In this document: positions 1,085 to 57,368 of the stretch, piece by piece
How the letters are laid out: each line of letters opens with the position of its first letter
How positions within the stretch are numbered: position 1 is the stretch's first letter
Assembly (NCBI GenBank): GCA_951406725.2
Contig: OX597817.1
Location: forward strand, 66,836,001-66,900,000
DNA length: 64,000 nt
Source of the DNA: Octopus vulgaris
Taxonomy: Eukaryota
Direction: 5' to 3'
Position numbers and translations under genes: made by a program
Notes under the pieces: generated by a model
Told to the model about the DNA's origin: nothing
The model's database searches: none
The model's input: the letters and a program-made list of their open reading frames with translations, nothing else

Positions 1085-1481
1085 TTATTTCTTCATTGCC
1101 CACAAGGGGGCAAACAAAGACAAACAAAGGGATTAAGTCGATTACATCGACCCCAGTGTATAACTGGTACTTATTTAATCAACCCCGAAAAGATGAAAGG
1201 CAAAGTCGACCTCGGTGGAATTTGAACTCAGAACGTAACGGCAGACGAAATACCTATTTCTTTACTACCCACAAGGGGCTAAACACAGAGAGGACAAACA
1301 AGGACAGACAAACGGATTAATTCGATTACATCGACCCCAGTGCATAACTGGTACTTAATTTATCGACCCCGAAAGGATGAAAAGCAAAGTCAACCTTGGC
1401 GGAATTTGAACTCAGAACGTAGTGGCAGACGAGATACAGCTAAGCATTTCAACCGGTGTGTAACGATTCTACCAGCTTGGC
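1085..1481 (-). mobile_element. tRNA-derived SINE, dimeric (tail type A)
   Basis: Head gccaagctggtagaatcg with B-box gagttcaaattcc. Two ~185-bp units joined at 1254. Confidence 0.85.
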
Positions 1482-3425
1482 GATGGTAAAGCAGTAGGCA
1501 TTAGGCAGTGCATCAAACTGCAGAAATCTATCCAGAAATGAAACACTGAAGGAGGATGTGGTCCTCTGACGTGTAGAATCCTGATGAACTGTCCGACCCA
1601 TGTCAACCTAGAAAGCACACATAAAATGATGATGATGACAATGGCAGCAGTGACAACGACAGTAGTGGCAGTAATGATGACAATATTTGTGTACTTATGG
1701 CAAGATAGCATTCTATTGATTCCATCAATCTTCCACTCTTTTAACAATAATACTGGTAATTGTTTCTAATATAGGTTAGCCATATAGTGGAAGGGGCTTA
1801 GTTAATTACATTAACTCCAATATTTGAATGGCACTAACATCTTCATCTCTCAATCCATCTTTATATAACTTCTCTATCTCACTCCATATATCCTTGTAAA
1901 CTTCTAGTTTACTGTTTCTTTGTATTTTCCTATATTACTCCACGTCTTTATGACTAATAAAGAAAAAAATTATCATTAATATAATTATTGATTATAAATA
2001 TATAAATTAATTAATAATTCTAATTACATTCTAAACTTTAATATCACTAAGGCTAACTTTGTCTTTCATCTTTCTAATATCAATAAAATAAAGTACCATT
2101 TAAGTACTGGATTCAGTATAATCGGTTATTTTTGTCCCCCAAATTTCTGGACTCATGCCTTGTGCTAGAAACAGTTATCATCGTCATCATCATGATCATC
2201 ACCACTGCAGCAGCGGCAACCGCTGCTGCCCACTGCCGTCTGCCGCTGTTGCTGCCCGCCGCCACTGTCGCTACTGCTGCCCAGTGCCACCGCTGCCAAG
2301 GTGGCAAGCATGCCAGGCAAAATGCTTAGCTGCATTTCTTCCAGTTTTACATTCTTGAGTTCAAGTTCAATTAAGGTTAACTTTATCTTTCATCTTTTCG
2401 GAGTCATTAGAATAAGTAATAGTTGAGGATGATGGATGTAATTGACCAGCCCTCTCCCCCCAAATTTCAGGCCGAGCAAAATGCTTAGCAGTATTTTGTC
2501 CATCTTTATGTACTGTGTTCAAATTCTCCTGAGGTCAACTTCACCTTTCATCCTTTCAGGGTCGTTGTTGTTGTCATCATTATTGCTCTGAATTGGTAAA
2601 ATCATTAGCATGCAGGACAAAATGCTTAGCAGCATTTCTTCCAACTCTTTACATTTTGAGTTCAAATTCTAACAAGTTAGATTTTGCCTTTCATCCTACC
2701 AGGATTGATAAAATGAATTACAAGACAATTTAATCAACTAACCTCTCCCCTTGAGTTTATAATCTTGTATTTAAATTAGCAGTCATGATTAGTTTTCATA
2801 CACCTCAAGATTCCAATCACCTTGCAGTCTGGGCAATTGTTGCTTTCTGACTTCCACTGACTACACTGCCAAATTGGTAAGGACCAGTGAATACTTGACA
2901 ACATTCAAGGTGTCAGATGCCCAATCTTGATCTTTTCTTGATCCAGGACTGCAACTCTATCAAAAAGATGAGATGCAGAAAAATGTGCCTTACAAATGGA
3001 GACCACCTGGTACTCCAAGATATATAACAGGAAGTACAACAACAGCAACAATGACAACATTGGTGATGATGATGGTGGTAGTGGTGGTTTTGATTGAGGC
3101 TCAAATTTGGAAATTTGGTGGAGCAGGGATTAGTCAATGCCATTGATGCCAGTACATGGCTGGTACCTTTTTTATCAATCCTGGAGAGATGAAGGGTAAA
3201 GTTAACATTGTCAAGTTTTGAACTCAGAACATAAAGAGATTGAATAAATACTACAGGACATTTTGTCCAACACCCTAGGAATTCTGTCATGTCAATTACT
3301 TGTGAAAGTTGCCCTTAAAGTTGAATGACTTTTAATTAGTTGAGAATAAAACTAGGATATAAAGATATGACTGATATAAGCAGAATGAGGAGAAATTCTT
3401 ACAGACTTTGACAAAGTTTACTTAC

Positions 3426-5588: not shown

Positions 5589-6129
5589 CTGAAATAGAAA
5601 AATTAATAGGATTGTAATCTAAAGAAAGGAATAATAACAAATCTTTTATGTTTTTGCTATACTCAGCATTTCTGCAAAAGTGACCAATAGAATAAGTACC
5701 AGGTTTTTAAGAAAAAGAAAAGTTAAGTACTGAGGTCAATTTGTTTGACTAAAATTCTTCAAGGTGGTGCCCCAGCATGGCCATAATCTAATGACTGAAA
5801 CAAATAAAAGACAAAAGATAAGAGATAGCTGTCATAACCGTCAATTGGTGTAAGGTACCAGATTCAAGGTGTAATTCCTTAAACAGAACAATGAATAATC
5901 TGGTCCATGAATGCAGGCATGGAAGAAGAACCAAGATGTGGGATGAAGTTGTGAGAAATGATCTTCAGATATTGGGACTCACCAGAGGAGATGAGGAAGG
6001 ACTGAAACCCTCCCAGCAAAGTAAAATTCATGTCCATGACACCTCCTCTTTCTCCCACAACCCATCCATGCTCATCACCGATGTTTTTCAACACCCACCC
6101 CACCCCCTATTCTCCCTTATGTGTCTACC

Positions 6130-6350
6130 TATTTCTTTACTACCCACAAGGGGCTAAACACAGAAGGGACAAACAAGGACAGACAAATGGATATCAACCC
6201 CAGTGCATAACTGGTACTTATTTAATCGACCTCGAAAGGATGAAAGGCAAAGTCGACCTCAGCGGAATTTTAACTCAGAATGTAGTGGCAGACGAAATAC
6301 CGCTACGCATTTCACCCCACGTGCTAACATTTCTGCCAGCTTGCCGCCTT
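6130..6350 (-). mobile_element. tRNA-derived SINE monomer (tail A) with TSD
   Basis: Full head and tail, flanked by ct(t/c)atgtgtctacc at 6116-6129 and 6351-6364. Confidence 0.85.
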
Positions 6351-14496: not shown

Positions 14497-14719
14497 TGTT
14501 TCTTTATTACCCACAGGGGGCTAAACATAGAGAGGACAAACAAAGGGATCAAATCAATCACATCGACCCCAGTGTGTAACTGTTACTTATTTAATCGACC
14601 CTGAAAAGATGAAAGGCAAAGTCGACCTCGGAGGAATTTGAACTCGGAACGTAACGGCAGACGTATTACCTTTAAGCATTTCGCCCAGAGTGCTAACGTT
14701 TCTGCCAGCTCGCCGCCTT
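14497..14719 (-). mobile_element. tRNA-derived SINE monomer (tail A) with 15-bp TSD
   Basis: tacatagtaaatatt at 14482-14496 and 14720-14734 flanks the element. Confidence 0.9.
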
Positions 14720-16626: not shown

Positions 16627-19028
16627 CAATAATTCCTTGCTTATCGTGGGTGTTAAGTTCCAGAAACCCCTCGCGGTTGGTGAAAATTCGCAAAGTAGAA
16701 ACAATACTGTGTTGTAGGTTTTTTAAAGTTATTTTTATAATTTGTATATATTTATTTTATTATTCTTTTATATTTAAGCAGCAAAAGTAAAGAATATGCA
16801 CACCCGGTGTTTAGGGTTAGGGCTTTTGTTACGCCGAAAACGGGTAGTGTGTGTATTCTTTACCCTTGCAATTTAAGCCTTTATAAACTCTCTGCACGCC
16901 CTTAAAAGTACCTGTGTCTTTTTTTTTTTGTGGTTGAGGAACATAGTGATGGGCAGTTACTGGTGCTGCCTTTTCTTCTGTGCAAAGAGTTTTATATAAA
17001 CTTCCATGGCTCCGTTGATTGCATTTCTGAATTGCAACGCTTGCATCATCTGGGGTTTCCAATCTTCCGTCATTCTCTGGTCTAAAAACTATACTGCTAT
17101 ATTGAAGTGAGCGTTATAACAATTCGACAGTAAGGATTACAACATTGGAGTTGTCTAGAGTTGAGAGGCATTCTAGTGATAGGCCAACTCCTTCTTCCCC
17201 TGAATTCTCTTGTTCTTCTTTCTCACTTGTTCGACTTCGCCATCTCTGTCAGATCTTCATCCGTTAACGGATCTGAGTGGGCTTTGAACAAATAATTAAC
17301 GTCCCAGGTAGTCGGTGAAGCCATCTCCTAGCAATTTTGTCAGCTTCACTGCCTTATCTACATCAGAGTGGTAGATTTCGTCAGGAGAAAATCCTTTATA
17401 ACCTGGCCATAATTTCTTCCAGCTGGCATTCAAAGTCCCGTTGCTTCATCTCCTTTATAGCCTTCTGAATATTTTGGAGACACGTTGCATTGGTGTATCC
17501 ACGCCAGTACGCCTTCAGCGAGAAGTTGTCATCCGAGTCCATAACCTCGACCAGGTGTTGCAAGGAGTTTCGCGTACAGAGCTCCTTTAAAGTACGAATA
17601 ACGTCTTGATCCATGGGCTGGATCAGCGATGTGGTATTATGCGGTAAGAATTCGATTTGTACGCCCTCATACGACAGGTCGAGCGCATGACCTCCAACAT
17701 TGTCCATTAAGAGAAGCACTTTGAATTCCAGTCCTTTTTCGGCGCGATGAACCTTGACTTCGGGGATGAAACACTGGTGAAACCAATCTGATGTCAGTGG
17801 TTTCGTTATCCATGCCTTCCGGTTGTGCATCCAATGCACTGGCAGCAGATTCTTATTTTTGTTTTTGAGGGCCCTTGACTTTTTGGACTTATAAATAAAC
17901 CCTCGCTTAATAATAAAGCCCGCAGCATTTCCACACATTATAATTATGACTCGATCTTTGTACGCCTTATTCCAGGGGCTCTGGTCTCCTCCTTCATAGT
18001 GAAAGTCTACGATGGCATCCGTTTCCAAAAGAGATCAGTCTCAATCATATTGAAAAATTGTTCACGCGAATATCCTACTTCTTTGACGATAGTCTTGAAC
18101 GTCTCGTTCGCGTACTCTTCAGCGGCGGGTTTCTCAGCAGAGGCAGCTTCTCCATGCAGGGAAACATTCTTAAGGTTGAATCTCCTTTGAAATTTATCAA
18201 ACCAGCCCTTGCTGAATTTAAATTCGGTTGACCTTCTCACAGATGGTATTAGTATCCAATGCAATGTTCTTCCTGCAGTCACTGATCCAAAGGGTTAATG
18301 CAGACTCCGTCCTTATGATGGCCTTATTGCGGAGAGTTACCACCCTTTTTGCTGTCTCGTTAAATGTCACTTTTGCCGCTGCCCTTATATATTGTTCATC
18401 CTTCTTGATGTAGCGAACGGTAGATTCATTGATGCCGTAATGGCGGCCTTCATCTGCATACCTTCTCCCTTCCTTAAGCATGTCGAGGAGACTCACCTTC
18501 TCTGCTATAGTAAGCATCTTCCACTGGCGCTTGGGTTCACTGCGGGAAGCCTTAGAAGGTGCAGAACGTTTGGATCACATCGTATGGCTTGAAATAAATT
18601 CACAATTTTTCACACAAATGCAAAACAACACTACACACTCACCTCCCGAGTTACGTTTTCCATACAGTATGTGCGACTCTTTGTTTAGTCATCTACGGTA
18701 CACTACATATTTTCTTTTGATATATTTTAATTAATGTGTTATACAGTGAAGTACTTTACTGTCTTTTCATTCACACTCACAGAATGTTTCACGACAAGGG
18801 AAAATATTGTGTCAAATGTATTAATTTATTAATTTTTAGGCGTGAAAATGATTATTTTACCACAAAAATAATTGAAATCTAAAAAAAAAAAATAATAAAT
18901 ACCGATTGGCTGCAGAAACCCGCAATATACTGAGGAGTCTGCGATATAAATTTACATGTATTAGCCTGAAAAATCCGCGATGTACTGAGGGTGCGATAGA
19001 TGAACCGCAATATGGCGAGTGATTACTA
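16627..19028 (-). mobile_element. Tigger/pogo (TIGD1-like) DNA transposon, near full length, decayed
   Basis: Frameshifted ORFs give a CENP-B-type HTH (MLTIAEKVSLLDML), FSKGWFDKFQRR and a DDE_1 region (NKAYKDR, LLLMDN, NTTSLIQPMDQ). Degenerate ~23-bp TIRs with TA flanks. Confidence 0.92.
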
Positions 19029-21325: not shown

Positions 21326-21473
21326 TAACAAAAACATCTTTAAATGATTATTCTGGAGCATATTCAACATCTACTTCAATTTCTGCTTGTCGTTTTGTTT
21401 AGATTGGCGTTTTGTTTAAATTTTTGTTGAATAAAATTTATTGAAAAAAAGCTGCAATACCCTAATACTATTA

Positions 21474-22190
21474 AGGCGGCGAGCTGGCAGAAACGTTAGC
21501 ACGCCGGGCGAAATGCTTAGCCGTATTTCGTCTGCTGATACGTTCTGAGTTCAAATTCCACCGAGGTCGCCTTTGCCTTTCATCCTTTCGGGGTCGAAAA
21601 ATTAAGTACCAGTTACGCACTGGAGTCGATGTAATCGACTTAATCTGTTTGTCTGTCCTTGTTTGTCCCCTCTGTGTTTAGCCCCTTGTGGGTAGTAAAG
21701 AAATAGGTATTTCGTCTGCCGCTACGTTCTGAGTTCAAATTCCGCCGAGGTCGACTTTGCCTTTCATCCTTTCGGGGTCGATTAAATAAGTACCAGTTAC
21801 GCACTGGGGTCGATGTAATCCGTTTTGTCCTCTCTGTGTTTAGCCCCTTGTGGGGAGTAAAGAAATAGGTATTTCGTCTGTCTTTACGTTCTGAGTTCAA
21901 ATTCCACCGAAGTCGACTTTGCCTTTCATCTTTTCGGGGTCGAAAAATTAAGTACCAGTTGCATATTGCGGTCGATCTAATCGATGGCTTCTTCCCCAAA
22001 GATTTCAGGCCTTGTGCCAAGAGTAGAAAAGAAAATGCTTAGCGGCTTTTCATTCGTTTTTACGTTCTAAGTTCAAATGCTGTCGGAGTCGGCTTCGCAT
22101 TTCATCTTATCAAGGATCAATAAAATAATTACCAGTTGAGTACTGGGATCGATGTAACCTACTTCCCAAAAATTGGTGACCTTGAGCAAA
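21474..22190 (+). mobile_element. SINE multimer: head, two tail-A units and a tail-B unit, followed by an older SINE fragment
   Basis: Units rejoin at AAATA|GGTATTTCGTC (21706 and 21868). The third unit ends in the cccc aaa..tttcaggccttgtgcc tail. Confidence 0.88.
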
Positions 22191-24445: not shown

Positions 24446-24524
24446 CTTCTTCTTCTTCTTCTTCTTCTTCTTCTTCTTCTTCTTCTTCTTCTTCTTCTTC
24501 TTCTTCTTCTTCTTCTTCTTCTTC
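24446..24524 (+). repeat. (TTC)n microsatellite
   Basis: Perfect trinucleotide run. Confidence 0.95.
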
Positions 24525-24525
24525 A

Positions 24526-24925
24526 GGTGTCGAGCTGGCAGAATCGTTAGCACACCAGGCGAAATGCTTAGCGATATTTCGTCCGCCGCTGCGTTCTTAG
24601 TTCAAATTCCGCCGAGGTCGACTTTGCCTTTCATCCTTTCGGAGTTGATAAATTAAGTACCAGTTACGCACTGGGGTCGATGTAATCGACTTAATCCCTT
24701 TGTCTGTCCTTGTTTGTCCATTCTGTGTTTAGCCCCTTGTGGGTAGTAAAGAAATAGGTATTTCGTCTGTCTCTTACGTTCCGAGTTCAAATTCCGCCCA
24801 GGTTGAATTTGCCTTTCATCTTTTCGGGATCGATGAATTAAGTACCAGTTGCGTACTGGAGTCGATCTAATCGACTGCCCCCTCCCACGAATTTCCAGGC
24901 CTTGTGCCTGCCTATAGTAGAAAGA
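24526..24925 (+). mobile_element. SINE dimer (tail A + tail B)
   Basis: Junction AAATA|GGTATTTCGTC at 24757. Confidence 0.85.
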
Positions 24926-25109
24926 ATTATAATTATTATTTATTTCTTACCCTAATTATATCTTGACCTGTTTTGGTTTTAACTTTCTATATGGCCTGTC
25001 CGTCTTTTCACAATTTTATTTTTATTTCATTTTGATCTTTGTTTTTATAACACTTCCAATCAGTTAAGATCAGAAGCCACGAGAGCCACTGCCTGGTACT
25101 GCATCAGGA

Positions 25110-28890: not shown

Positions 28891-31641
28891 TGAAACGAGC
28901 TTGATGTCGGTGAGTATCCTCGTGGACTTTCGGGGTGCACAAAGCAATCACTCACTAGCCGTTGCTTTAATAATCCAGAATTCTACAAGTCAGAAACAAC
29001 AAAACGCAGACGTGAAATATATATATAATTACTTTATTCTCTTTCTTGGTAAACAATAACAATAAGTGTGTTATCTGATGTCCTTGATTCGGGCGCGCAA
29101 GGCTGAAAGTTAATAGATTGTAATATTTACAATCTCCAGCCCAAAAACAGAAAGGATTCAAGATGGCGTCGAACAATGGAGACGATGTTGGTCTGCAACA
29201 ATTTTGGTTAAAAGTCTTCGGCCAAAGGACTGCTAGAATCCGTTCGAATGGAGAGAATATATGCGTGACCGTCGCCGTCAATCGCTGGGTCCCAAGTCAC
29301 CGCTTGCTGGACGCTAGCGGTCAAACGTTCTACGACCCCCTTGCCTCGCTAACTGCTACGTAGGCAATAGGGTCGTGCTACCGGTGGTTCGCGCATGCGC
29401 GAGAGGGCCCTTCCTTTCTGTGCCTTGGTGAAGGCACTAACACGCGCGAAATACAAATGGTCGGTGCGCGAGCGCGCACCGTTATAATATCACTACAGGC
29501 TCCCCTCCAGTGCGTACGCACGAAAGGAAACATTGTAGTGACTGCAAAACTCAAGGTGGACACCAGATAACCAAATAGCACACAATAATATAATGGCAAA
29601 ATTTATAACATACACAAGAAATTTACCAAAGGAAAAAGAGAAAAAATACTCAATGAGCAAAAATCAAGAGTGCATGCATGAAAGTGTATACGCCACAAAA
29701 GTATAAACCCTTCCGCTGAAGGGAGCGGAAGAAAAGGCAGAACTCACAGTTATTGAACCTAGGCGAAATTAAAATCCAACTTCTCTAAAGGTGGTTGATC
29801 CTGCAAATAGCAGTTAAATCAATTGCTGCAGGAGATGAAATGGAATTGACAGAATCTCGCTAGTAACACAAAAGGCAAAAGTGCAAACATGCTGGTGTGA
29901 TGCGCGACACAGATAATTTTCTGTTAATTACGTGACCAACAAGGGACTAACAGGGAAAAATAATTACGCCTATAAATCGGCGCAGCGCATATGAACATCC
30001 GACATGAGTCGGGAAAAGAAATCAAGCTAACGCAAAACGTGTTGCAAAACAAGGCAAGTACACGTGCGAAGCAATAGGCGCATGAAATGCAATAGTGCTT
30101 GCCAGACCAAAAAACAGCAAATGAATATGCCAGTGGTTAAGCGATTATATGCTTCGTTCGTATAGGAACAAAAGTATGACATGCTGGCGCGTTATAATGG
30201 ACAAACAACCCTCTCTATGTATACGTGACCAACCTAGGGTCTATAGAAATGAGGGGTGTCCACAAAAGGCAAATTTAGCATGGAACAAAACAAGCGAGAA
30301 AAGCACGTGTGACGTATGTATGTGAGAGAGAGCATTTATGTGTGTGTACGTGTGTGCGACAGAAATACATACAAGGTGAATGCGAGCAAAATACAAAAAA
30401 ATACAGCGCATAGAAAAAATGTCTCTCGGGCTATTCCAGACAAGAATTAATTTACCAGTCTGTAATAGCCTGATGTACAATAGCAGTTCGTTCTGTAACA
30501 GAAATGTTGAAATCACAAAATGCAGATGCCGATTGAACACATATCGTGTAACGGTTGTGGCTTCAATGCTGTGACAGGTTAACTGGAACAGAAGAAATCT
30601 CGTAGAAAGTGCTGTAAAATCCTTGGTGTGCTAATGCACAAACGGCAAGTGGACTAAACTTCCGCGAGTTGCTATGTACATCTTGGTGGAGGTCGACGGT
30701 GTTGAAAGGCGACGTTGGTGGTGGAAGGCGACTGTAGTGGACTTGGGACAACATCGTTCTCAGTGATGATGGCGACGAAGATAGCGACGACGTGAAGTAG
30801 ACAGACGACGAAGGTGGAGAAAAGGCATCGAATATATGATGGCGTCCGTCATCATGGCTGTAGAAGAAGAAAGAGGCTCCTTCTACTACTGTTTGTGGTG
30901 GCCGGAAAACAAATCGTCGAAAGATGAATGCGTAGAGTTAAATCGTGTTCCGACTTCGCAGAAAAACTGGATTTTTTTTTGTTGATAAGTGATCTCTGGT
31001 TTTAGACCAGAATCACGTCGGGAGGTCACCACTTGTAACAAGCTTGAGTGAAGTAAATATCTCTTGTGCACTTTCGGGGTGCACAAAGCAATCACTCACT
31101 AGCCGTTGCTTTAATAATCCAGAATTCTACAAGTCAGAAACAACAAAACGCAGACGTGAAATATATATATAATTACTTTATTCTCTTTCTTGGTAAACAA
31201 TAACAATAAGTGTGTTATCTGATGTCCTTGATTCGGGCGCGCAAGGCTGAAAGTTAATAGATTGTAATATTTACAATCTCCAGCCCAAAAACAGAAAGGA
31301 TTCAAGATGGCGTCGAACAATGGAGACGATGTTGGTCTGCAACAATTTTGGTTAAAAGTCTTCGGCCAAAGGACTGCTAGAATCCGTTCGAATGGAGAGA
31401 ATATATGCGTGACCGTCGCCGTCAATCGCTGGGTCCCAAGTCACCGCTTGCTGGACGCTAGCGGTCAAACGTTCTACGACCCCCTTGCCTCGCTAACTGC
31501 TACGTAGGCAATAGGGTCGTGCTACCGGTGGTTCGCGCATGCGCGAGAGGGCCCTTCCTTTCTGTGCCTTGGTGAAGGCACTAACACGCGCGAAATACAA
31601 ATGGTCGGTGCGCGAGCGCGCACCGTTATAATATCACTACA
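28891..31641 (-). mobile_element. Non-autonomous LTR retrotransposon (Gypsy-type cis signals)
   Basis: LTRs at 28891-29497 and 31034-31641 (TG...CA). 4-bp TSD gttt at 28887-28890 and 31642-31645. PBS matching the tRNA-Trp 3' end (aatcacgtcgggaggtcacca, 31011-31031). PPT at 29498-29510. No retroviral ORF in the 1.5-kb interior. Confidence 0.92.
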
Positions 31642-32096: not shown

Positions 32097-33800
32097 CCCT
32101 GGCCTTGCCTTGCTGGCTGGAAACTTGCCTTGGCTGGCTGGCATGTTTTTAGCTGCCTGGCTGGCTGGCCGACCCGGTTTTGGATACCTGGCTGGCCCGA
32201 CTGTGGCTTGCTGGCTGGAAACTGGCCTAGGCTGGCTGGCTGGCTAGTTGTTGGCTGCCTGGCTGGCCCGGTGTTGGCTTGCTGGCTGGCCTGGCTTTGG
32301 CTGGCTGGCCCGGTTTTGCATACCTGGCTGGCCGGGCCTTAGCTTGCTGGCTGGAAACTGGCTTAGGCTGGATGGATGGCCCTGTTTTAGATACCTGGCT
32401 GGCCCTGAACTTGTCTTGCTGGCTGGAAACTTACCTAGGCTGGCTGGCTGGCCAGGTCTTGAATGCCTGGCTTGCCCAGCTTTGGCTTGCTGGTTGGTCT
32501 GGCCTTGACTTGCTGGCTGGCCCGGTTTTGGATACCTGGCTGGCCTAGCCTTGGCTGGCTGGCTGGCCTGGTCTTGGCTTCCTGACTGGATCGGCCTTGG
32601 CTTGCTGGCTGGCCTGGCCTTGGCTGGCTGGCTGGCTGGCTGGCCCGGTTTTGGGTACCTGGCTTGACGTGCGTTGGCTTGGTGGCTGGAAACTTGCCTA
32701 GGCTGGCTGGCTCGGTTTTGGATACCTGGATGGTCCTGGGCTTGGCTTGCTGGCTGGAAACTGGCCTAGGCTGGATGGCTGGCCCTGTTTTGAATACCTC
32801 GTTGGTCCTGGACTTGGCTTGCTGGCTGGCCGGTTCTTGGCTGCCTGGCTGGTCCGACCTTGGCTTGCTGGCTGACCTGGCCTTGGCTGGCTGGTTCGTC
32901 CGGTTCTGGATACCTGGCTGGCCCGGCATTGGCTTGCTGGCTGGAAACTGGCCTAGGCTGGATGGCTGGCCCGGTTTTGGATACCTGGCTGGTCCTGGAC
33001 TTGGCTTGCTGGCTGGAATCTTGCCTAGGCTGGCTGGCTGGCCGGGTCTTGGCTGCGTGGCTGGCCCGGCCTTGGCTTGCTGACTGGCCCGGTTTGGGAT
33101 ACCTGGCTGGCCCGGCGTTGGCTTGCTGGCTGGAAAATGGCCTAAGCTGGCTGGCTGGCCCGGTTTTGGATACCTGGCTGGTTCTAGGCTTGGGTTGCTG
33201 GCTGGAAACTTGCCTAGGCTGGCTGGCTGGCCGGTTCTTTGCTGCCTGGCTTGCCCGGCCTTGGCTTGCTGGCTGGCCCGGTTTGGGTACCTGGCTGGGC
33301 CGGCGTTGGCTTGATGTCTGGAAACTTGCCTGGGCTGGCTGGCTGGCCCGGTTTTGGGTACCTGGCTGGTCCTGGGCTTGGGTTGCTGGCTGGAAACTTG
33401 CGTAGGCTGGCTGGCTGACCTGGTCTTGGCTGCGTGGCTGGCCCGGCCTTGGCTTGCTGGCTGACTGGCTGGCCCAGTTTGGATACCTGGCTGGCCCGGC
33501 GTTGGCTTGCTGGTTGGGAACTGGCCTAGGCTGGATGGCTGGCCTTGTTTTGGATACCCGGCCGGTCCTGGACTTGATTTGCTGGCTGGAAACTTGCCTA
33601 GGCTGGCTGTCTGGCCAGGTCTTGGCTGCCTGGCTGGTCCTGGACTTGGCTTGCTGGCTGGAAACTTGCCTAGGCTGGCTGGCCGGCCGGTTCTTCGCTG
33701 CATGACTGGTCCAGCCTTGGCTTGCTGGCTGGCCTGGCCATGGCTGGCTGGCCCGGTTTTGGATACCTGGCTGGTCCTGGGCTTGGCTTGCTGACTGACG
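32097..33800. repeat. GC-rich complex minisatellite built from GGCT/GCTGG modules (~35/70-bp higher order)
   Basis: Recurrent modules cttgctggctggaaacttgcctaggctggctgg and cccggttttggatacctggctgg. The top strand is very A-poor. Confidence 0.92.
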
Positions 33801-35234
33801 CAAGCATTGTTATTATTATTATGGTGCATTGTTGCGCCATTCACAACACAGTATTATTATTTATTATATTTTTTATCATTTACTTGTTTTAGTCATTAGA
33901 CTGTGGCCATGTTGGAGCATTTCCTTGAAGGGTTTTAGTTGAACAAATTAATTCCAACACTTGTTTCTAAAGTCTGGTACCTATTCTATCGTCTCTGTTG
34001 CCAAACTGCTAAGTTTTGGTGAGATAAACAAACTAATATTGCTCTTCTTGCCTGTCAAGCAGTGAGGGGTGGGACAGGTAGACACACATACATACACACA
34101 CACACACACACTCATACGCATATGCATATATATGTGTGTGTGTATATATATATATAAAACTGAGAATGTGTGTCTGTCTGTCTGTCTGTCTGTCTGTGTG
34201 AATCCCTAAAATCTGAGAACTACACAACCAATTTCATTCAGATTTTACACATGCCTTACTTAGAGTCCGGGGAGTGTCATGGGCAAAAAATGTTTAACTT
34301 CCTGCCTAGGGCGAACCCACAGTAATATTATATCTTCTCCTCTATTTCAGTATTACGTGTTAAAAGTGAAACAAAAGCATCTCTCTATTGTATATATATA
34401 TATATATAAAACTGAGAATGTGTGTCTGTCTGTGTGAATCCCTAAAACTTGAGAACTACATTCAAATTTTACACATGCCTTACTTAGGGTCCATGGATTT
34501 ATATGGGCAAAAAAAATTTTGACTTCTTGCCTAGGACGAGCTCATAGAAATATATCTTCTCCACTATGAATCCCTAAAACTTGAAAACTACACAACCAAT
34601 TTTATTCAAATTTTACACATGCCTTACATCGGGTCCATGTAGTGTAATATGTATACATGTATATGTATAGATGTATTTCTATAGATATACATGTATATGT
34701 ATACATGTATGTCTAGATGTATATATATAAATGTATATGTAATATGTACACATATATATATACACATATATACATGCATACATATATACACCCATACACA
34801 CATACATAGGCGCAGGTGTGGCTGTGTGGTAACAAAAAATTGGTTCCAAAACACATGGTCCTCAGTTCAGTCCCACTGTGTGGTAACTTGGCATGTGTCT
34901 TCTGCTATAGCCTCAGACCAACCAAAGCCTTGTCCGTGGATTTTGTAGACAGAAACTGAAAGAAATCAATTGTATGTATATGTATGTATATATGTAAGTC
35001 TATGTGTGTGTCTTTGTGTTTCTCCCTCATCACTGCTTCACAACTGGTGTTCGTTTATTTACATCCCCATAACTTACTGGTTTCACAAGAAGAAACTGAT
35101 AGAATAAGTACCAGGCTTATCAAAATATAAAAAAGCACTACGCAGTGTCTCATATTTTTGTTTGCCCACTCAGTTGTATCTATCAATTTATCATTGTGTG
35201 TGTGTGTGTGTGTGTGTGTGTATACATATATATA

Positions 35235-35334
<100 letters not shown>

Positions 35335-35399
35335 ATTTCGTAGACAGGAACTGAAACAAATCAATCGTATATATATGTATGTATATATGTAAGTGTATG

Positions 35400-38100
35400 G
35401 GTTTTGGTATTGGCAACATGAATGACAATGGTCAGAGACTACTTGAATTTTGCACATACCATAACCTGTGCATCACCAACACATTCTTTGCCAACAAGAC
35501 ATCCCACAAGTCATATTGGAGACATCCAAGATCTCACCACTGGCATCAGTTGGATCTTATCATTACACGAAGATCCTTTCTGAATTCTGTTCAACTGACC
35601 CGTAGTTACCACAGCACGGATTGTGACACAGATCATTCACTAATAAGAAGCAGGGTGAGGATTCTGCCTAAAAAAGTCCATCACTCCAAGAAAATGGGCC
35701 GACCACGCATTAACACTGCCAGAACCTCGGATCCTACGCTGCGAAAATGTTTTGCTGTTTCTATCAAGGTTGCCCTCAGTAGCTGCCCAACCTCCTCTGC
35801 TGAAAGTTGGTGGAATTATATCAGGGAAGCTTTGTATACCACATCAATAGATACTTTCGGCATGATTCAGTGCTGGGCTCTCAGAGCTGGAAACAGTTAT
35901 CGAAGCAAAGCGTGCAGCTCTTATGCAATACAAGAGGGATTCTTCTACAAAGTCACTCGAAGAACTCAGAAGGGCAAGAAATAAAACCCAACTGACTGCC
36001 AGACGCTGTGCAAATAGGTATTGGCAGGAAATCTGTCAGAGTATCCAGTCAGCTGCTGACAGTGGCGACACCCGTGGGATGTATGCCGGTTTGAAGAAGG
36101 CCCTCGGTCCATCCGCAACCAAGTCAGCCCCTCTGAAATCAACTACTAGAGATCTCATCAAGGACCAAAGCAAGCAAATGGATAGATGGGTGGAGTACTA
36201 CCAGGATCTCTACTCACGGGAAACTACGGTAGCTGAGGCTGCAATCGAGGGTGTCAAGATCTTGCCAGTCATGTGTGAAATTGACAGTCTGCCATCTATA
36301 GCAGAGCTCACCAACGCTATAGACTCCCTAGCAAGTAACAAGGCTCCGGGAAAAGACAGCATCCCCTTAGAGATCATCAAAACCAGCAAAAACACCATCC
36401 TGCTTCGGCACCTTTATGAGCTTTTGTGTCAGTGCTGGGAAGAGGGTACAGTTCCTCAGGATATGCGGGATGCTAACATCATTACGCTTTACTAAAACAA
36501 AGGTGACCGAAGTGATTGTAACAATTACCGTGGAATATCTCTTCTAAGCACTGTTGGAAAGGCCTTTGCTTGCGTTATCCTGTCCAGGCTACAACTGCTT
36601 GCTTTTCAAATTTATCCAGAATCGCAGTGTGGCTTTAGAAGAAGCAGATCAACTATTGACATGATATTCTCCATACGCCAACTTCAGGAGAAGTCCAGAG
36701 AGCAGAAAATGCCATTATGTATGGCCTTCATTGATTGGACAAAGGCCTTTGACTGGGTAAGTAGAAAAGGCCTCTTCATCCTGCTCCAAAAAATCGGATG
36801 TCCACCAAAGCTGCTGAGGATCATCAAATCTTTCCATGATGATATGCAAGGTACCATACAGCACAATGGTTCAACATCAGCCGCCTTCCAAATAAAAAAC
36901 GGAGTAAAGCAAGGTTGTATCCTTGCCCCTACATTATTTGGCATCTTCTCGCTGCGGCTGTCACATGCCTTTGAGATATCAGATGATGAAGTGTTTCTGC
37001 ACAGTAGAAGTGACGAGAAACTGTTCAATTTCTCGCGTCTTGCAAAGACCAAAATCAGAAGCGTCCTGATCAAGCAGATGCTATTTGCTGATGATGCCAC
37101 TCTGGTATCACACACAGAAGAAGCCCTACAAAGGCTCATCAACTGTTTTGAGCATGCATGTAGCGACTTTGGCTTAGTTATCAGCCTCGAGAAGACCAAC
37201 ATCATGGGTCAGGCTACATTGGACATCCCAAACATACATATTGGAGGCCACAGACTACAGGAGGTGGAGAAGTTTACCTATCTTAGCTCTACCGTCACCT
37301 ACAACATATCCCTTGATGCTGAGCTCAATATACGCATTGGCAAGGTAGCTACTGTGATGGCCCAACTCTCCAAACGGGCATGGGACAACAATAAGCTGAC
37401 CAAGACCACAAAAATGAAGATTTACCAGGCATGTGTACTTAGCATTCTACTGTATGGAAGTAAGACTTGGACGCCATACACACGCCAAGAGTGTCGCCTA
37501 AATATCTTTCACCTGCGCTGCCTCCAGAAAATCCTTCGCATCAAATCGCAGAATTATGTCCCCAACAAAGATGTCTTCAAGCAAGCAGGAATACCAAGCA
37601 TGTTTGCACTCCTCACACAAAGACGTATGAGATGGCTTGGACATGTTAGCCGTATGGAAGATGGTAGAATCCCCAAGGACATACTCATCAGAGAGCTTGC
37701 TAGAGGCATTAGGTCTGTGGGAAGACCGTTCTTACGATACAAGGATGTTTGCAAAAGGGATATGAATGCCTGCAACATCAATATTACCAACTGGGAAGCT
37801 GTTGCCAGTAACCGTGGAGATTGGCGACGTACCGTAAAGGAGGGAACACAAAGGAGTGACATAGAGAGAGAGAGGAGAAATGGAAAGACAAGAAAAGACG
37901 TCAACAAGAAAGTATGACTTTACAACCAGCCAGGCAAAGTCTTCGCTACATTTGCGGCAACTGCCAGAGGGAGTGTTTGTCCAGGATAGGACTACACAGC
38001 TACAGCAGGAGATGTATTAGGACATGAAATGTAAAAGCCGGACTAGATTATTTTATGCACAACTCCATTGTCTCCCGAGACAAAAAGGATGCTAACAACA
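35400..38100 (+). mobile_element. RTE-clade LINE, 5'-truncated (partial AP endonuclease plus RT), lightly decayed
   Basis: NDNGQRLLEFC, WHQLDLII, DTDHSL, KAPGKD, NYRGISLL, KAFDWV, GVKQGCILAP, LFADD, RRMRWLGHV, a terminal CxxC finger and a (CAA) tail. One stop at 36493 and frameshifts. Confidence 0.95.
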
Positions 38101-49377: not shown

Positions 49378-49868
49378 TTCTTATCTAGACACAAGGCCCG
49401 AAATTTTTGGGGAGGTGGGCCAGTCGATTAGATCGACTCCAGTACGCAACTGGTACTTAATTTATCGACCTCGAAAAGATGAAAGGCAAAGCCGGCCTCG
49501 GCGGAATTTGAACACAGAACATAAAGATAGACGAAATACCTATTTGTTTACTACCCACAAGGGGCTAAACACAGAGAGGACAAACAATGACAGACAAACG
49601 GATTAAGTCGATTATATCGACACCAGTGCGTAAATGGTACTTATTTAATCGACTCGGATAGGATGAAAGGCAAAGTCGACCTCGGCGGAATTTGAACTCA
49701 GAACGCAGCGGCAGACGAAATACCTATTTCTTTACTACCCACAAGGGCTAAACACAGAGAGGACAAACAAGGACAGACAAACGGATTAAGTCGATTATAT
49801 CGACACCAGTGCGTAACTGGTACTTATTTAATCGACTCGGATAGGTTGAAAGGCAAAGTCGACCTCGG
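49378..49868 (-). mobile_element. SINE trimer (tail A, tail A, tail B)
   Basis: Junctions at 49724 and 49540. Confidence 0.85.
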
Positions 49869-50299: not shown

Positions 50300-50600
<301 letters not shown>

Positions 50601-51069
50601 AGGTGGTGTGCTGGCAAAATGCTTAGCGGTATTTCGTCTGTCTTTATGTTCTAAGTTCAAATTCCGCCTAGGTCAATTTTGCCTTTGTTTCCAGGGGCTG
50701 AATTATTTAAACCCCAAAGAATTCCCATCAACCCATGCCTATAATGCCCTGCTCATGATCGGAAATGCACATGTTATCAGCCACTAAGGAACATCCTCAA
50801 CTAGTTAACGCGAAACAATTGACAAGCTAATCTGTATTATTGAGCAGACATTTTGTTGTAGCCCATCTTTTATACCAAGACAAAACATCTACATGATTTC
50901 TCTTCCAATCAGTGGAAATCAGAAGCTGTGAGAGCCAGTACCTGCACGCCGTGCAAAATGTTTGCCTTTCATCCTTTCGGGGTCGATAAATTAAGTCCCA
51001 GTTGAGGTCGATGTGAACAGCTGTCACTCTTCCCCAGTAAACCCAGGCCTTGTGCCTAGAGTAGAAAGG

Positions 51070-51570: not shown

Positions 51571-52934
51571 ATATATATACATAGAGAGAGAGATACACAT
51601 ACATACATATATACATACATACATACATATATATATATATAGGTATATATGTATATATGCATATATATATATATCATTTATATTATATATGTGTGTGTGT
51701 GTGTGTGTGTTTGTGTGTATGTGTGTATGTGTGTGTGTGTGTTCTTTAATACAAAAAAAATAATAGAAACTCAAACTAGACAACCTTGTTGCGTTATTTA
51801 CTAGAGAGTATTTTTCATATAATTTGTTTCTTTTGTTGTTTTATTCTGCGGGCTACTTATTTCTTTAGAAAGGTAGAGACAGAGAAAGAGAGAAATAAAT
51901 CTCTGTGTGCGAGTGTGATTGTGTGTGTGTGTGTGTGGGGGGGGGGGGTAACAAGGAGAGGGAAAGTGATATATCGCTCGCATATTCCCACCCTCATTAC
52001 TAACGCAATGCAGGTCATGGAGATGTATGACGTTTATATATTTGTAGTTGAGATGAGTCATTGCTATATTTTTCCGGATTACTAATCATATCTTTTGTGT
52101 ATCTTTTTCTTTTCCTTTTACTTGTTTAAGTAATTTGACTGCAGTTATACTGGAGCACCGCCTTGAAAGGTTTTTAATCGAACAGATCGACCCCCAGGAC
52201 TAATTTCTAAAGTCTAGTTCTCATTCTATCGGTTCTCTTTTGTCGAACAGCTATGTTACGGGTATGCAACCACACCAGCATCGGTTGATAACGAGGGGGT
52301 GGGGCAAACAGACGAAAATACACACAGACACAGGGATACACACACACACACACACACACACTCACACACACACGACGGGTTTCTTCCAGTTTCCATCTAT
52401 CAATAGGCATTTCGTCTGTCGCTACGTTCTGAGTTCAAATTCCGCCAAGGTCAACTTTGCCTTTCCATCCTTTCGAAGTCGATTAAATAAGTACCAGTTA
52501 CGCACTGGGGTCAATATAATCGACTTAATCCGTTTGTCTGTCCTTGTTTGTCCCCTCTGTGTGTAGCCCCTTGTGGGCAGTTAAGAAATAGATATTTGCA
52601 GTGATTTCACATTCAAGTCACAAAACACGCAGGCGAAAAGAATCCCGTGGTATGAAGAATCAACACAGAACAACGTGCGGCACAGATACAAGTGAAGTGA
52701 AACACAACACAGCAAGCAGTTGTCATGGTAACAAGCTGCTAATGCCACGCTGACTGTTGATTGGCTAAAATTACCCAAATTTCCCAACTTTAATTCCAAA
52801 TAACATCAGATTCTTTAATTTATGAGATAAAGTAATTAGTTGATCGTACTCAAAATTCAGAGTTGCATCGATACACGAAAATTGAAAGCAATCTGAGCAA
52901 AATTAAAGAGGGCTCATTTTTTGCGAATGAAACT

Positions 52935-55916
52935 ATAATGGAATTGTCTGGCGCCAGCATTGTACCAGGGAGTGCCAGGATGGTACCGTAAAGGAGTTCA
53001 GCAGAGGAGAAACCTAAGTCTGTTTTACAGCAGTGCGACAACCAAGAAGAACGATAGGCAAGAATTCTGTCCAAGACTGCGGATCAGGAGTGACACGTAG
53101 AGCGGCACTATTGGAATGGCTTCAGACCAACGAGAGAAACGATTGACGTATGTCAATATATGGGAAACTACAACTGACAGGCTATGGTCCAACCAGATCA
53201 ATGTGGACATGGCGAAAGCAAGTCTCCGGCGGAGAAAACTGTCCAAGAGGAGCGCGAATGTGCCTGTGGATTTTAGAACGCTTGCATTTCACACAAGAGC
53301 GTGCCCAAGCGGTGATCATGCGGCGCTTATTAGGCCAGGAAAACCGAGCCGTAATAAGCTTCACCGAGGCAGCGATGCCAGGATGTGCCAGTGAATGCGA
53401 GGCATCAAACACAGAACGCTGGTGGTTCGCAGGTACAAACGGTCTGGGAGAACCAGTCGCTGTGTCACAAAGGATTGTGCCTTCAGCAGACCGGAAGTGG
53501 AAGATAGGTAAACTTGCAACAGGACAACTTGGTGGAAGTTAGATCCAATGTGTACAGAGCTGGCTGATCCTGCGCAATGCCAGTTAAATCGATTGCAGCA
53601 AGAGATGAAAGAGAACACACAGGAGACGAAAGAGTGCGTCAGCAGGTATGTTCTCTGTTCCAGGTATATGCCGAATGTCACTCGTGAACTGGGAAATGTA
53701 GTCCAGGTGGCGAAAAGCACGAGGCGAGTGTTTGTCCGATTTAGATGACAGAGCAAACGTCAGAGTCTTGTGGTCAGTATAAAATACAAAATGACGAACC
53801 GGCAGATAGATCACTAAGAGTTCACGATCAAACGTACTGTAACGACGTTCAGCTGACTTTAATTGACAAGAAAAAAGAATTGCCAAAGGTCGACTTTGAT
53901 TGTCGACGGTATGTTGCAAAACAGTACCAACCGCAGAATCCGATGCAACAACTGTTAAAGAGAGACGAGCAACAGGAACCGGACGTGCAAGCAAAGGAAC
54001 AGAAGCTATTTCCTTCTTGATTGACTCAAAAAAAGATAATGCCTCGGCAGATAGAGTGATAGGAGAATTTGATTTGAAAGTCAGATCAACCAGCTCTGGG
54101 AAAGAAGCCAAGAGGTAATGGAACTGGTCACCAGCAGTGGCGACAAAAAATGACGGGCTGAGAACAGTATTAGTAATAACCTGAGTAGGCGTAAACAAAG
54201 ACGTAGAATCGTCTACGAGTCTCTGTCGCCTGACATCTACTAAGTGAAAGTAGTTTAAGGAGTCCGTGCCCAGAATGGGGTACGGTAGATTTGTTATAGC
54301 AAAATCTCACCTAAAATCCCTGCAAAGGTTGAGATCTAGGTGTAATGAGACCTGACCGTAAGTTTTTATCGGGGATAGATTCACCGCGTGCATGTAATGG
54401 CAGATTACTTCTGCTTGTCTGAAGTAAGACGCAAAGGCCAAATAGAACAGCTGGATCCGGTGTCAACCATTAACGATTCGTTAAACACACGATCCTTAAC
54501 GAAGAATGCACGATGAGATGAAAAATTGCGGAGGATTTTGAAGTGCCCAAATCTTCCGTAACTAGTTTCACGACAGTTTGAACGATGGGCTTTATCCTTG
54601 AATGTGGCATGGTACCAGCCGAGACTGGAAACCGTTGGAGTAGAACTTGACGACCGGGACTTAGAACGGCTTCTGCTGCGAGGACGACGAGAGCTGGCAT
54701 GTTCTCGCGACAATGTGTCCATGCGACGTGCTAATGCATCGATTCTCTCCAAAATGTCGTCATGTAACGTGGGAGAAGACTTTGTGATAGTAGAGGAAGC
54801 TACTACGGGGCCCGAACAGGTATGCTGCACAGTGAACTCTATGATCTTGTCCGCGATGGTGGCTATCTGATCGAGCGAATTGGAGTCGACCGTTGTGGCC
54901 AGTATGGATTGGACATTCGGCAGTAGTTGAGAGAAAAACAATTTCCTAAGCAGAGGATTGTTCTCAAGTGGAGTGTCGCTGAGTTCACACAAACGACGAA
55001 GAAACTCAGATGGCGTCCGAGATCCCAGATTTTCATCCTGCATCAGTGTCTGGAATTTCCTTTTCGCGGATGGTGTGTTCCGACGGAGAACCTCGGATTT
55101 GACGGACACGTAATTCGTGTCCGGATGTGGGTCAGTAATGAGATCTTTCACTAAGCGTGCAAGGGGTGCAGGCATCCTACAGTACAAAAGATTTAAGCTG
55201 CTGTTGGTGAGGTACCGCATGGGTGGAAAAAATACGCATCCAGTTGAGTGAACCAAAGCGTGACATCACCAGAGTACGCGGGTAAGTTGGGAAGACTCAT
55301 TTTGTATAGAGAAAAGAAAAAAGGACTAAAGAACCGACAAAAGTGTTGCTGGAATAGTAACGTGTGTGCGAAAAAAATATTCTTACCAAAATTTTTGATT
55401 TTTTTTTTGTGTACTGTGTGCAACAATGAAAATAAAAAATTCTTTTTTTAGTCACCAAACCTGTGTTGCAGTCCGCTGGAAAAAAATCTTTGTGTATTTT
55501 TTTAAGAAGTCGTCAGAAAATGGCCGGCGAACTGGTAATTTTTTTTTTTTTTTTTCAACACGTGAGGCAATCCGAACATTGCGGTAGACAGGAACGATGG
55601 CTGGAAGTTGATGGTCGGCTTGCTTGAAGTGTCCTCCCGAAGCTGCATTTGTGTATGTACTGGCATCAAACGTTGACGGTCGACTTTGTGGGAGAAATTA
55701 CTTCAAAAGGAAATTACTTGAAAGAATACCGTCTAGTTGCATGTGGGAAGAAAACATACTCTGCGAGGTACAAGTTCAAGGCGAGAAACACGAATTCTAA
55801 AGGTTCACTTGAACGAGAGAAGATAGTCTGACGTTGGGCCAGACTGCCATTCAGGTGAGGCATCTACAATGAGAAAGCTTGCCGCTGCCGAAATCCTTTT
55901 TCCGTCGGGGTCACCA
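52935..55916 (-). mobile_element. Ty3/Gypsy LTR retrotransposon, decayed (gag, protease, RNase H, integrase; RT core deleted)
   Basis: Gag MSLPNLPAYSGDVTLWFTQLDAYF...RTPSEFLRRL, protease LMVDTGSS, RNase H ASDSAVGTVLQ..ERRYSTFDRELL..YTDHK, integrase HSLAHPG..CVKC..HIDLVGP. PBS-Trp cgtcggggtcacca at 55903-55916. Confidence 0.93.
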
Positions 55917-56239: not shown

Positions 56240-57368
56240 TTTTTTATTACCCACAAGGGACCAACGAAGAGAGGACAATACAAACACATGTGGGGACATA
56301 TAAAAACGAAAAAATAAATAAAAATTAAAAAATTAAAAAATTAAAACGTATGATATGCATGAATGATACAATGAAAATGATAATGAAAGTGAGCTACTTG
56401 CCTCACTTCAAGCAGCATCACATGCTTCCTTTTATCTTATAAATTCCAAGTACTTTATACCATATTTCTCGGTCAGTTACTCGTACTTTATATTGTCTGG
56501 TATCGTCTTTAAATCAGAAATCACCCTCCAACACTTATAACCCCTCTTAAATTTCAATATTTCGTCTTTTTAGCTTTCGGACACCCGAACACATAAGTGC
56601 CATCCCTCAATGTTTGTGCATCCTTTGACATGGACAAATCTTGCAGTCTTCCATTTTGTTATCTTATTGAGCAGTTCCTTGTCCACACCTTCAACCATCA
56701 TACACACGAAACAATTTCATTGGGCGGGGGAGTTTGTATTTCTTCTTTTTCTCTTGCTTTGTGTAGGAGGGGAAAGAGTGAGTTTGGTGACTGTGGGGGA
56801 GAGGGTATGGGTGGAGTTGGTATAGTTTGGGGTTCTACTTCACTCTGTCCTTTCTTCCTCTTCCTTTTTCTTCATTCAGTTACCACCCACTGTTCTTCGT
56901 TTCTCTTTTTTTCTTATTGCACCTTCTCCGGCTTCTTTCCAGCTTCCTCCTGACTTTTCGGCGTCTGTAGAGGGCAGTGTGCTCTAATGTGACTTTTTGG
57001 CCACATTTGAAGCAACGAGGGGTTCTGCCCTCCACCCACACTTTCAACACTACATCTCCAGTGGTCACCGTTTCCACCAGTGTTCCTGCAGTACCCTGTA
57101 TGATCAGGTCCAATATTTGGCCTTTCCATACCGAATTTTCTGTTTTTGTGACTTGGAGGACGGCTATTTCTTCTTTACTTCCTAGAAGAACAGCCGCTGC
57201 AACCCAAGCCACATCTATTTATGGTGGAATTCCCTCCACTCTAATCCTGGAAGTCCTTCTTCCAAGATAAGTGGGTAGAAGGACCACTTTTTCCGACTTT
57301 ACTGTGGTTACTGTGTGTTCTTTTGCTTTTCCTTCTGTCTTGAAATGGACCACAATTGTTCGGTATAA
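56240..57368 (-). mobile_element. Tx1-like ORF1-only derivative (half-LINE) with a SINE-like 3' tail
   Basis: LLPTYLGRR..VEGRTPRCFKCGQKSHIRAHC zinc knuckle, homologous to the ORF1 at 59430-59940. Followed by an AT-rich 3'UTR and the tail gtcccttgtgggtaataaaaaa, with no recognisable ORF2. Confidence 0.7.

Follow-up and report, generated by a model that had tools for sequence, protein, structure and literature searches.

Compound copies of a two-tailed octopus SINE joined at one base of the SINE head

At position 21474 of the 64-kb stretch of octopus DNA analysed here (the window), successive SINE units are joined at one and the same base of the SINE head, and the same join recurs at three further loci. 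Is this junction cut anew at each locus by machinery that homes into SINE heads, as the original prediction proposed, or is it inherited from parent copies that were already multimeric?

Four arrays with a common junction

BLAST of three SINE copies of the window against the window itself resulted in 15 merged SINE loci in 64 kb. The units and loci on which the argument is built are listed below; the A- and B-box-like elements of the head were assigned by their likeness to the general box consensus.

21473..21521 (+): SINE head preceding the junction site; A-box-like element at 21485-21495
21522..21705 (+): first unit with a mutated site of its own (CGTATTTCGTC), a B-box-like element at 21549-21559, the AAATT signature in its body, and tail A
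21706..21867 (+): headless unit in the middle of the array, with tail A, the TAAAT signature, and a deletion of 22 nt; 4/162 differences from the A majority
21868..22030 (+): headless terminal unit of a young tail-B subfamily (named B2)
22031..22190 (+): older headless SINE copy adjoining tail B by a different junction, its start lying farther upstream in the head by about 13 nt
1086..1482 (-): dimer of head and first unit (1482-1255), junction 1254, and a terminal variant tail-A unit akin to monomer 14499; an outer duplication of 9 nt with 1 mismatch, now decayed, is possible
24525..24925 (+): dimer in which head and first unit (24525-24756) are followed, from junction 24757, by a terminal B2 unit
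49378..49868 (-): headless trimer of tail-A units 49868-49725 and 49724-49541 (a local duplication) and terminal B2 unit 49540-49378
6130..6350 (-): tail-A monomer of full length with its head site intact and a target duplication of 14-16 nt that starts (TA)GGTAGAC
14497..14719 (-): full-length variant tail-A monomer, exact 15-nt target duplication starting AATATTT
52406..52590 (+): solitary tail-A unit that lacks a head and begins at the junction base, AATA before and GATATTT after; likely the remnant of an array
56240..56284 (-): decayed tail-A-only fragment, flank outside the target bias

When both strands of the window were searched, the 16-mer across the junction, AAATAGGTATTTCGTC, was found six times, at 1254(-), 21706(+), 21868(+), 24757(+), 49540(-), and 49724(-), which are exactly the positions first reported. 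The 3' junction is precise in a multicopy target, with 6/6 junctions at one base, and the six junction 11-mers are all perfect. The sequence GGTATTTCGTC occurs eight times in the window, six times at the junctions and twice in the intact SINE heads 6301 and 50628. Tail A ends all six upstream units, and tail B ends the terminal unit in three of the four arrays, the exception being the variant tail A at 1085; both regularities had been noticed originally and hold. Two quoted details required correction. The long tail string given for the junctions is not exact at all six (21868 has GGGGAGT, 49540 has AAACAAATA, and 49724 has one C fewer), and the duplication reported at 6129 exists but is really 14-16 nt long with one mismatch and begins with the TA of the tail itself. 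Four tail-A ends, at 1085, 14499, 52591, and 56240, were absent from the earlier account. The array at 49378 lacks a head, and the one at 21474 is followed by a further, older headless unit, its fourth, for which the join lies at another position of the head. The SINE arrays are real and precisely joined, and they form a variant of compound and tandem SINEs; all array counts refer to four arrays in one 64-kb window.

The junction base corresponds to about position 50 of the SINE, between the box-like elements, and lies within the 6-nt loop of a predicted 11-pair stem of the folded head (z -2.4). If the RNA were cleaved in this hairpin loop, an end-to-end jump of the reverse transcriptase or a circular template would make the junction afresh in copying; the start of unit 52406 at that very base also fits such a route. 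However, no ribozyme family was detected by Rfam at the gathering score, nor up to E 10 on 21440-22060, the neighbouring units at 21474 and 1085 are not copies of one template, and the target bias described below is left unaccounted for. We regard loop cleavage as hardly credible. A rolling-circle or retrozyme-like origin was rejected on the same grounds. ARAGORN predicted no tRNA genes and Rfam gave no tRNA match to the head. The tail-A end GAAATA is the reverse complement of TATTTC just beyond the junction; the resulting short hairpin across it (21696-21716) was not significant in comparison with shuffles.

Both tails contain a small inverted repeat around a common CTTGT loop (21682, 22008, and others), which suggests related LINE partners of tails A and B. 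The tail profiles matched no LINE in the window. A LINE-like element at 35355-37917 is spread over three frames, with RVT_1 in a 473-aa frame and a 3' end that matches neither tail. The window also holds a DDE_1 transposase remnant (17396-18574), an LTR-type pol remnant with RT-RNase H domains (53147-55265), a GC-rich imperfect tandem array with 23- and 72-nt periods and long open frames (32200-33850), and two identical 109-aa translations about 2.1 kb apart (28967-29296 and 31111-31440), which reflect either recent duplication or an artefact of the assembly. A cluster of four diverged, older SINE copies occupies one strand at 2025-2760, where a tail-B stub is joined to a headless unit at 2473. 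The treatment of 50613 and 50961 as one split SINE was dropped; a head remnant was found at 50931.

Target bias of the tail-A ends

The tail profiles located 11 tail-A ends in the window, six at the junctions and five elsewhere. The flanks of four of the latter, AGTGTCT, GGTAGAC, AATATTT, and GATATTT, match the GGTATTT of the head at 19/28 positions, where 7.6 were expected (p about 1e-5); without copy 6129 the match is 15/21 (p 3e-5). The fifth flank, of the decayed fragment 56240, agrees at 1-4/7 depending on the register, and with it included p is at most 2e-4. Head-site-like flanks thus occur also at the newly noticed ends 1085, 14499, and 52591, though not at 56240, and the proposed GGTA-like bias of tail-A insertions is real outside the arrays, at 4/5 ends. 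The duplications of 14-16 nt at 6129 and 15 nt at 14499 indicate that the targets pre-dated the insertion. Ordinary 3' microhomology may contribute at these two loci, as a duplication can include the last bases of the tail. Target site duplications were clear at 2/10 loci examined (6129, 14499), with decayed candidates at 629 and 1085; no outer duplication was found at the arrays 21474, 24526, and 49378.

According to the original prediction, the endonuclease of a partner LINE prefers GGTA-like DNA, each junction arose independently, and the resident A box was kept. The bias at 4/5 non-array ends, which holds without 6129, and the pre-existing targets marked by the duplications at 6129 and 14499 both speak for such homing, as do the different subfamily pairs that join at one base and the existence of free B2-like copies. 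Scar-like changes were also observed at the sites of the first units. In first units 21522, 24573, and 1438 the GG of the unit's own target site is altered, in each of them differently. The GG is kept in 5/5 free heads under about 20% divergence vs 0/3 first units (post hoc Fisher p 0.018). Counted over 13 nt from the site, the first units show 5 changes in 39 bases vs 1/78 at the junctions (p 0.015, also post hoc).

The strength of the bias was estimated by a motif model, for which a per-mismatch penalty was fitted to the four flanks that follow the bias, with every 7-mer of the window as background, and 10 or 20 perfect SINE sites were assumed. Independent ends were counted, 49724 being dropped as a duplicate and 56240 left out. 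The model predicted 4-8% of insertions at SINE heads vs 5/9 observed (P of at least 5/9 = 1e-5 to 3e-4); taken to its 95% likelihood limit, it gave a share of 15-26% (P = 0.005-0.053). The bias is therefore too weak to place 5/9 ends at SINE heads by independent endonuclease homing at each junction. The model ignores longer-range and structural recognition, so that homing is lowered by this result, not excluded. The likeness to R2 that had been drawn also fails on strict specificity: the fitting non-array ends match 4-6/7 of GGTATTT and then 0-3/8 of the next 8 nt (positions 8-15), and one end only 1-4/7.

The heads point in the same direction. Heads 1085 and 24526 carry AGAATCG, whereas heads 21474, 6129, and 14499 carry AGAAAYG, and proteins P0002 and P0011 of O. 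bimaculoides, the two in which a free tail-B copy is informative on this point, have the AGAAACG type as well. The array head differs from the presumed host type in 2/3 cases (the numbers are small and partly derived from the proteins of another genome), and the inheritance of the host A box was accordingly not borne out. No second head was present in 3/3 head-bearing arrays, though both monomers are full length. Together with the position sorting, the equal ages, the duplication at 49724, and the second junction described in the next section, which would require a second specificity of the enzyme, these observations leave endonuclease homing unlikely.

The same bias could also be set by the RNA. 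A read-through RNA with GGUAUUUCGUC beyond tail A might pair with the nicked target and bring the SINE back to its own head, a kind of self-homing that we consider doubtful but worth weighing. The guide would send tail-A-primed insertions to short look-alikes and, far more often, to young SINE heads, and the junction would be regenerated at each locus; this extension is put forward with the same doubt. The non-array flanks pair with such a guide at 25/28 positions when G-T and U-G are allowed (p about 3e-6). PMC6530143 and the review PMC6007223 provide a precedent in 3' RNA-target annealing; the insertion of R2Ol increased from 12% to 96% with a longer target-matching flank (PMC6530143). However, the transition-type degeneracy equally suits an endonuclease, flank positions 8-15 match only 0-3/8, the intact sites 6301 and 50628 remained uninvaded, and flank 56240 misfits.

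Unit subfamilies and the origin of the arrays

An alignment of 24 units and a tree of 16 bodies were used to compare the units. The AAATT signature is present in 3/3 head-bearing first units and in 0/7 other tail-A units, which carry TAAAT. The terminal B2 units (3/3) have TTTTC, AAATT, and GATCTAATC in common; none of the 4 free B copies compared shows all three together, although the free B copy 50961 has AAATT. No first-unit-type monomer and no free B2 copy were found in the 64-kb window. The tree contains 1 starred branch of 13 and shows neither presence nor absence of clustering by position; the claim that units sort by position is based on the diagnostic columns. A single pre-formed master had been named as the pattern that would speak against homing. 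The sorting by position agrees with such a pattern, whereas the single master does not stand: downstream of the head-bearing first units lie three different kinds of neighbour (variant A, A, and B2), and one master for all arrays was rejected. Several founders or recombination are therefore needed.

The pairwise differences of the bodies were 41/354 (11.6%) among the first units and 46/354 (13.0%) among the terminal B units, compared with 65/687 for the four other tail-A units and 76/444 for the free B copies. The upstream units were expected to be younger than the terminal B unit, and measurably they are not; the similar divergence of both groups fits a joint insertion. The two tail-A units of 49378 differ at 4/144 positions and share 5 derived letters (support 98/93, the sole starred branch). 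Judged by these letters, junction 49724 is a local duplication, which speaks against an independent origin of each junction.

Given that duplication, a founder junction might have been moved and expanded at the DNA level, by unequal recombination or gene conversion among dispersed near-identical SINEs; SINE arrays are attributed to unequal recombination in PMC10702118 and PMC11481361. However, the adjacent tail-A units at 21474 (14/162 differences) and 1085 (21/169) are no closer than units of different loci. Neighbours more alike than the units of other loci, as expected of a SINE satellite, were found in one of the three adjacent tail-A pairs (49378). The bias of the non-array ends would also be unexplained, and spread at the DNA level appears very unlikely. 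The four arrays represent four different unit arrangements. The terminal unit at 1085 has 5 derived letters in common with monomer 14499, and one of these lies 18 columns beyond the junction.

The account that we favour, with doubt still slightly outweighing confidence, is that the arrays are compound copies of a two-tailed octopus SINE, the join being inherited from a few multimeric parent copies and not cut anew per locus. Tail-A insertions would prefer GGTATTT-like sites, of which the SINE head would be the best match, and a tail-A unit would have landed in a head in a small number of founder events; at least two would be required, one into a B2 copy and the other into a variant tail-A copy. 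As the duplicated target would be homologous to the interior of the incoming copy, the 5' join could be resolved there and one head left. Transcription from the single head would then read through tail A and turn the arrays into templates, which might be copied whole or be primed at an inner tail A. Template switching or recombination of near-identical units, along with local tandem duplication, would produce new unit numbers and neighbours. Read-through RNAs could end in the next unit: TTTT is lacking in 2/3 first units and present in all four terminal units. TTTT does not stop full-length copying, since free copies with TTTT exist (14499).

This founder account is favoured because the units sort by position, with AAATT in the first units and B2 at the end, and inheritance is preferred to fresh cutting because the motif predicts 4-8% at SINE heads where 5/9 were seen. 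Unit 52406, which starts at the junction base after AATA with no tail upstream, was also counted in its favour. Against it were counted the free copies of B2, the missing outer duplication at three arrays, and the 0/95 database proteins with the position-50 junction. Masters leave unexplained the changes in the own-site GG of the first units, compared with the GG kept in free heads.

Copies outside the window were examined for the same features. Antisense translations of the SINE were found in proteins named Octopus bimaculoides, and the family is therefore octopod. Among the O. bimaculoides proteins, P0002, P0004, and P0011 contain free tail-B copies with AAATT and their own head, and B2 is therefore not confined to the ends of arrays. 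The annotated O. bimaculoides proteins P0003 and P0007 contain an antisense SINE segment ending at one common head position, which suggests exonisation or mis-annotation. A similar internal head deletion of about 22 nt is seen at 50600-50686 and in P0004, possibly a subfamily.

The contig sets of organisms D, E, and F gave 210,537, 124,514, and 212,713 records on 24515-25000, respectively, as expected of a dispersed, high-copy family; raw-read run X22, with only 20 reads there, was left out. The summed depth of the junction bin relative to the last tail-A bin was 0.40, 0.29, and 0.26 in D, E, and F; these ratios are not copy shares, as the bin includes 4 tail bases. The contig pieces listed over the junction have fewer than 31 letters on one side, none bridging it by the 31-letter rule. 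The tail variant at 24744 rose from 13% in D to 58% in E and 78% in F. This hints at an association of the junction with the GGGTAGT tail; of the tails of this type in the window, 7/7 are followed by GGTA. The loose ends before the head are ATT-rich in D and E, like the (ATT)n flanks of most tail-B copies of the window.

A different joint, from tail A to head position 16 (24754 to 24540), was found in 2 contigs of E and 3 of F, and in proteins P0009, P0017, and P0082 tail A is joined near head position 16-17, as deduced from amino acids, with frameshifts in the reading. There is apparently a second, older fixed junction at head position 16-17, and it suits founding and amplification better than one fixed cut site. 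The position-50 junction was found in 0/95 database proteins, a weak negative, as most of these are old copies, but one that lends the frequency of the junction no outside support. A scan for the tail-A pattern across metagenome, viral, and prokaryote collections yielded 130 loci, which are chance hits, their SINE matches never exceeding 30 nt; the SINE body pattern was found in 0 viral contigs.

The RNA guide would explain the three different neighbours and the heads that follow the first unit and not the host, as well as hosts of a young subfamily (TTTTC in 4/4 terminal units and 0/6 others) and the six perfect junction 11-mers. However, the terminal units are not significantly older. Extended to both junctions, the idea is that the SINE programs its own target: a chance self-insertion would place a read-through guide in the RNA, specificity residing there and not in the endonuclease, and the junction at position 16-17 would represent an earlier round. 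We hold this, too, to be somewhat unlikely.

Known systems and significance

One of the octopus elements OR1 and OR2 is about 390 nt long, close to the 400-nt dimer here, and an octopus SINE dimer may already have been described with them. OR1/OR2 are named as CORE-SINEs in PMC4824008, PMC4758252, and PMC5804259. They (Ohshima and Okada 1994) resemble the present SINE in the Octopus host, the head, which here is putatively of tRNA type, and the nature of a short, abundant, dispersed repeat; their sequence was absent from two of the three supplements of PMC4824008. Literature searches returned no paper that describes either a SINE with its own head as target or the octopus arrays seen here; subscription papers or Repbase may contain one.

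The closest parallels are SINE multimers of other animals. The blood clam multimers, described as TSD1-(SINE)n-TSD1 in PMC11481361, likewise have a complete head on the first unit and later units cut at one head position. In contrast, their inner tails are truncated and belong to the same SINE, whereas the octopus arrays have complete, different tails, varied subfamilies, and a target bias of the monomers. Squamate SINE satellites and jerboa Dip/B1 tandems (PMC10702118) share SINE-built tandem units and local duplication as at 49378; the octopus arrays differ in having 2-3 heterogeneous units and a fixed junction inside the head, while the jerboa multimers are described there as consisting of full-length units. 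R2, R1, Utopia, and the tRNA-targeting NeSL-like elements also have a precise 3' junction in a multicopy RNA-gene-like sequence (PMC4640811 and PMC6530143). Compared with R2-type elements, the specificity of the octopus SINE is weak and its target is its own family.

Most tail-B ends (24925, 49290, 49378, 51068) adjoin (ATT)n or ATT-rich sequence. Dong-R4 LINEs target TAA repeats and, given the (ATT)n flanks, are a possible partner of tail B. PMC13282606 reports Dong-R4 LINEs as active in octopus and SINEs as 11.6% of the O. vulgaris assembly.

Arrays of this sort blur SINE copy counts, ages, and the building of consensus sequences. If only inheritance from masters holds, the arrays are an ordinary compound SINE with an unusually clear history. 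If the read-through variant were true, the target choice of a non-autonomous retroposon would be heritable via its RNA and self-reinforcing, and this would bear on the roles of RNA-DNA pairing and the endonuclease in the site choice of LINE machinery.
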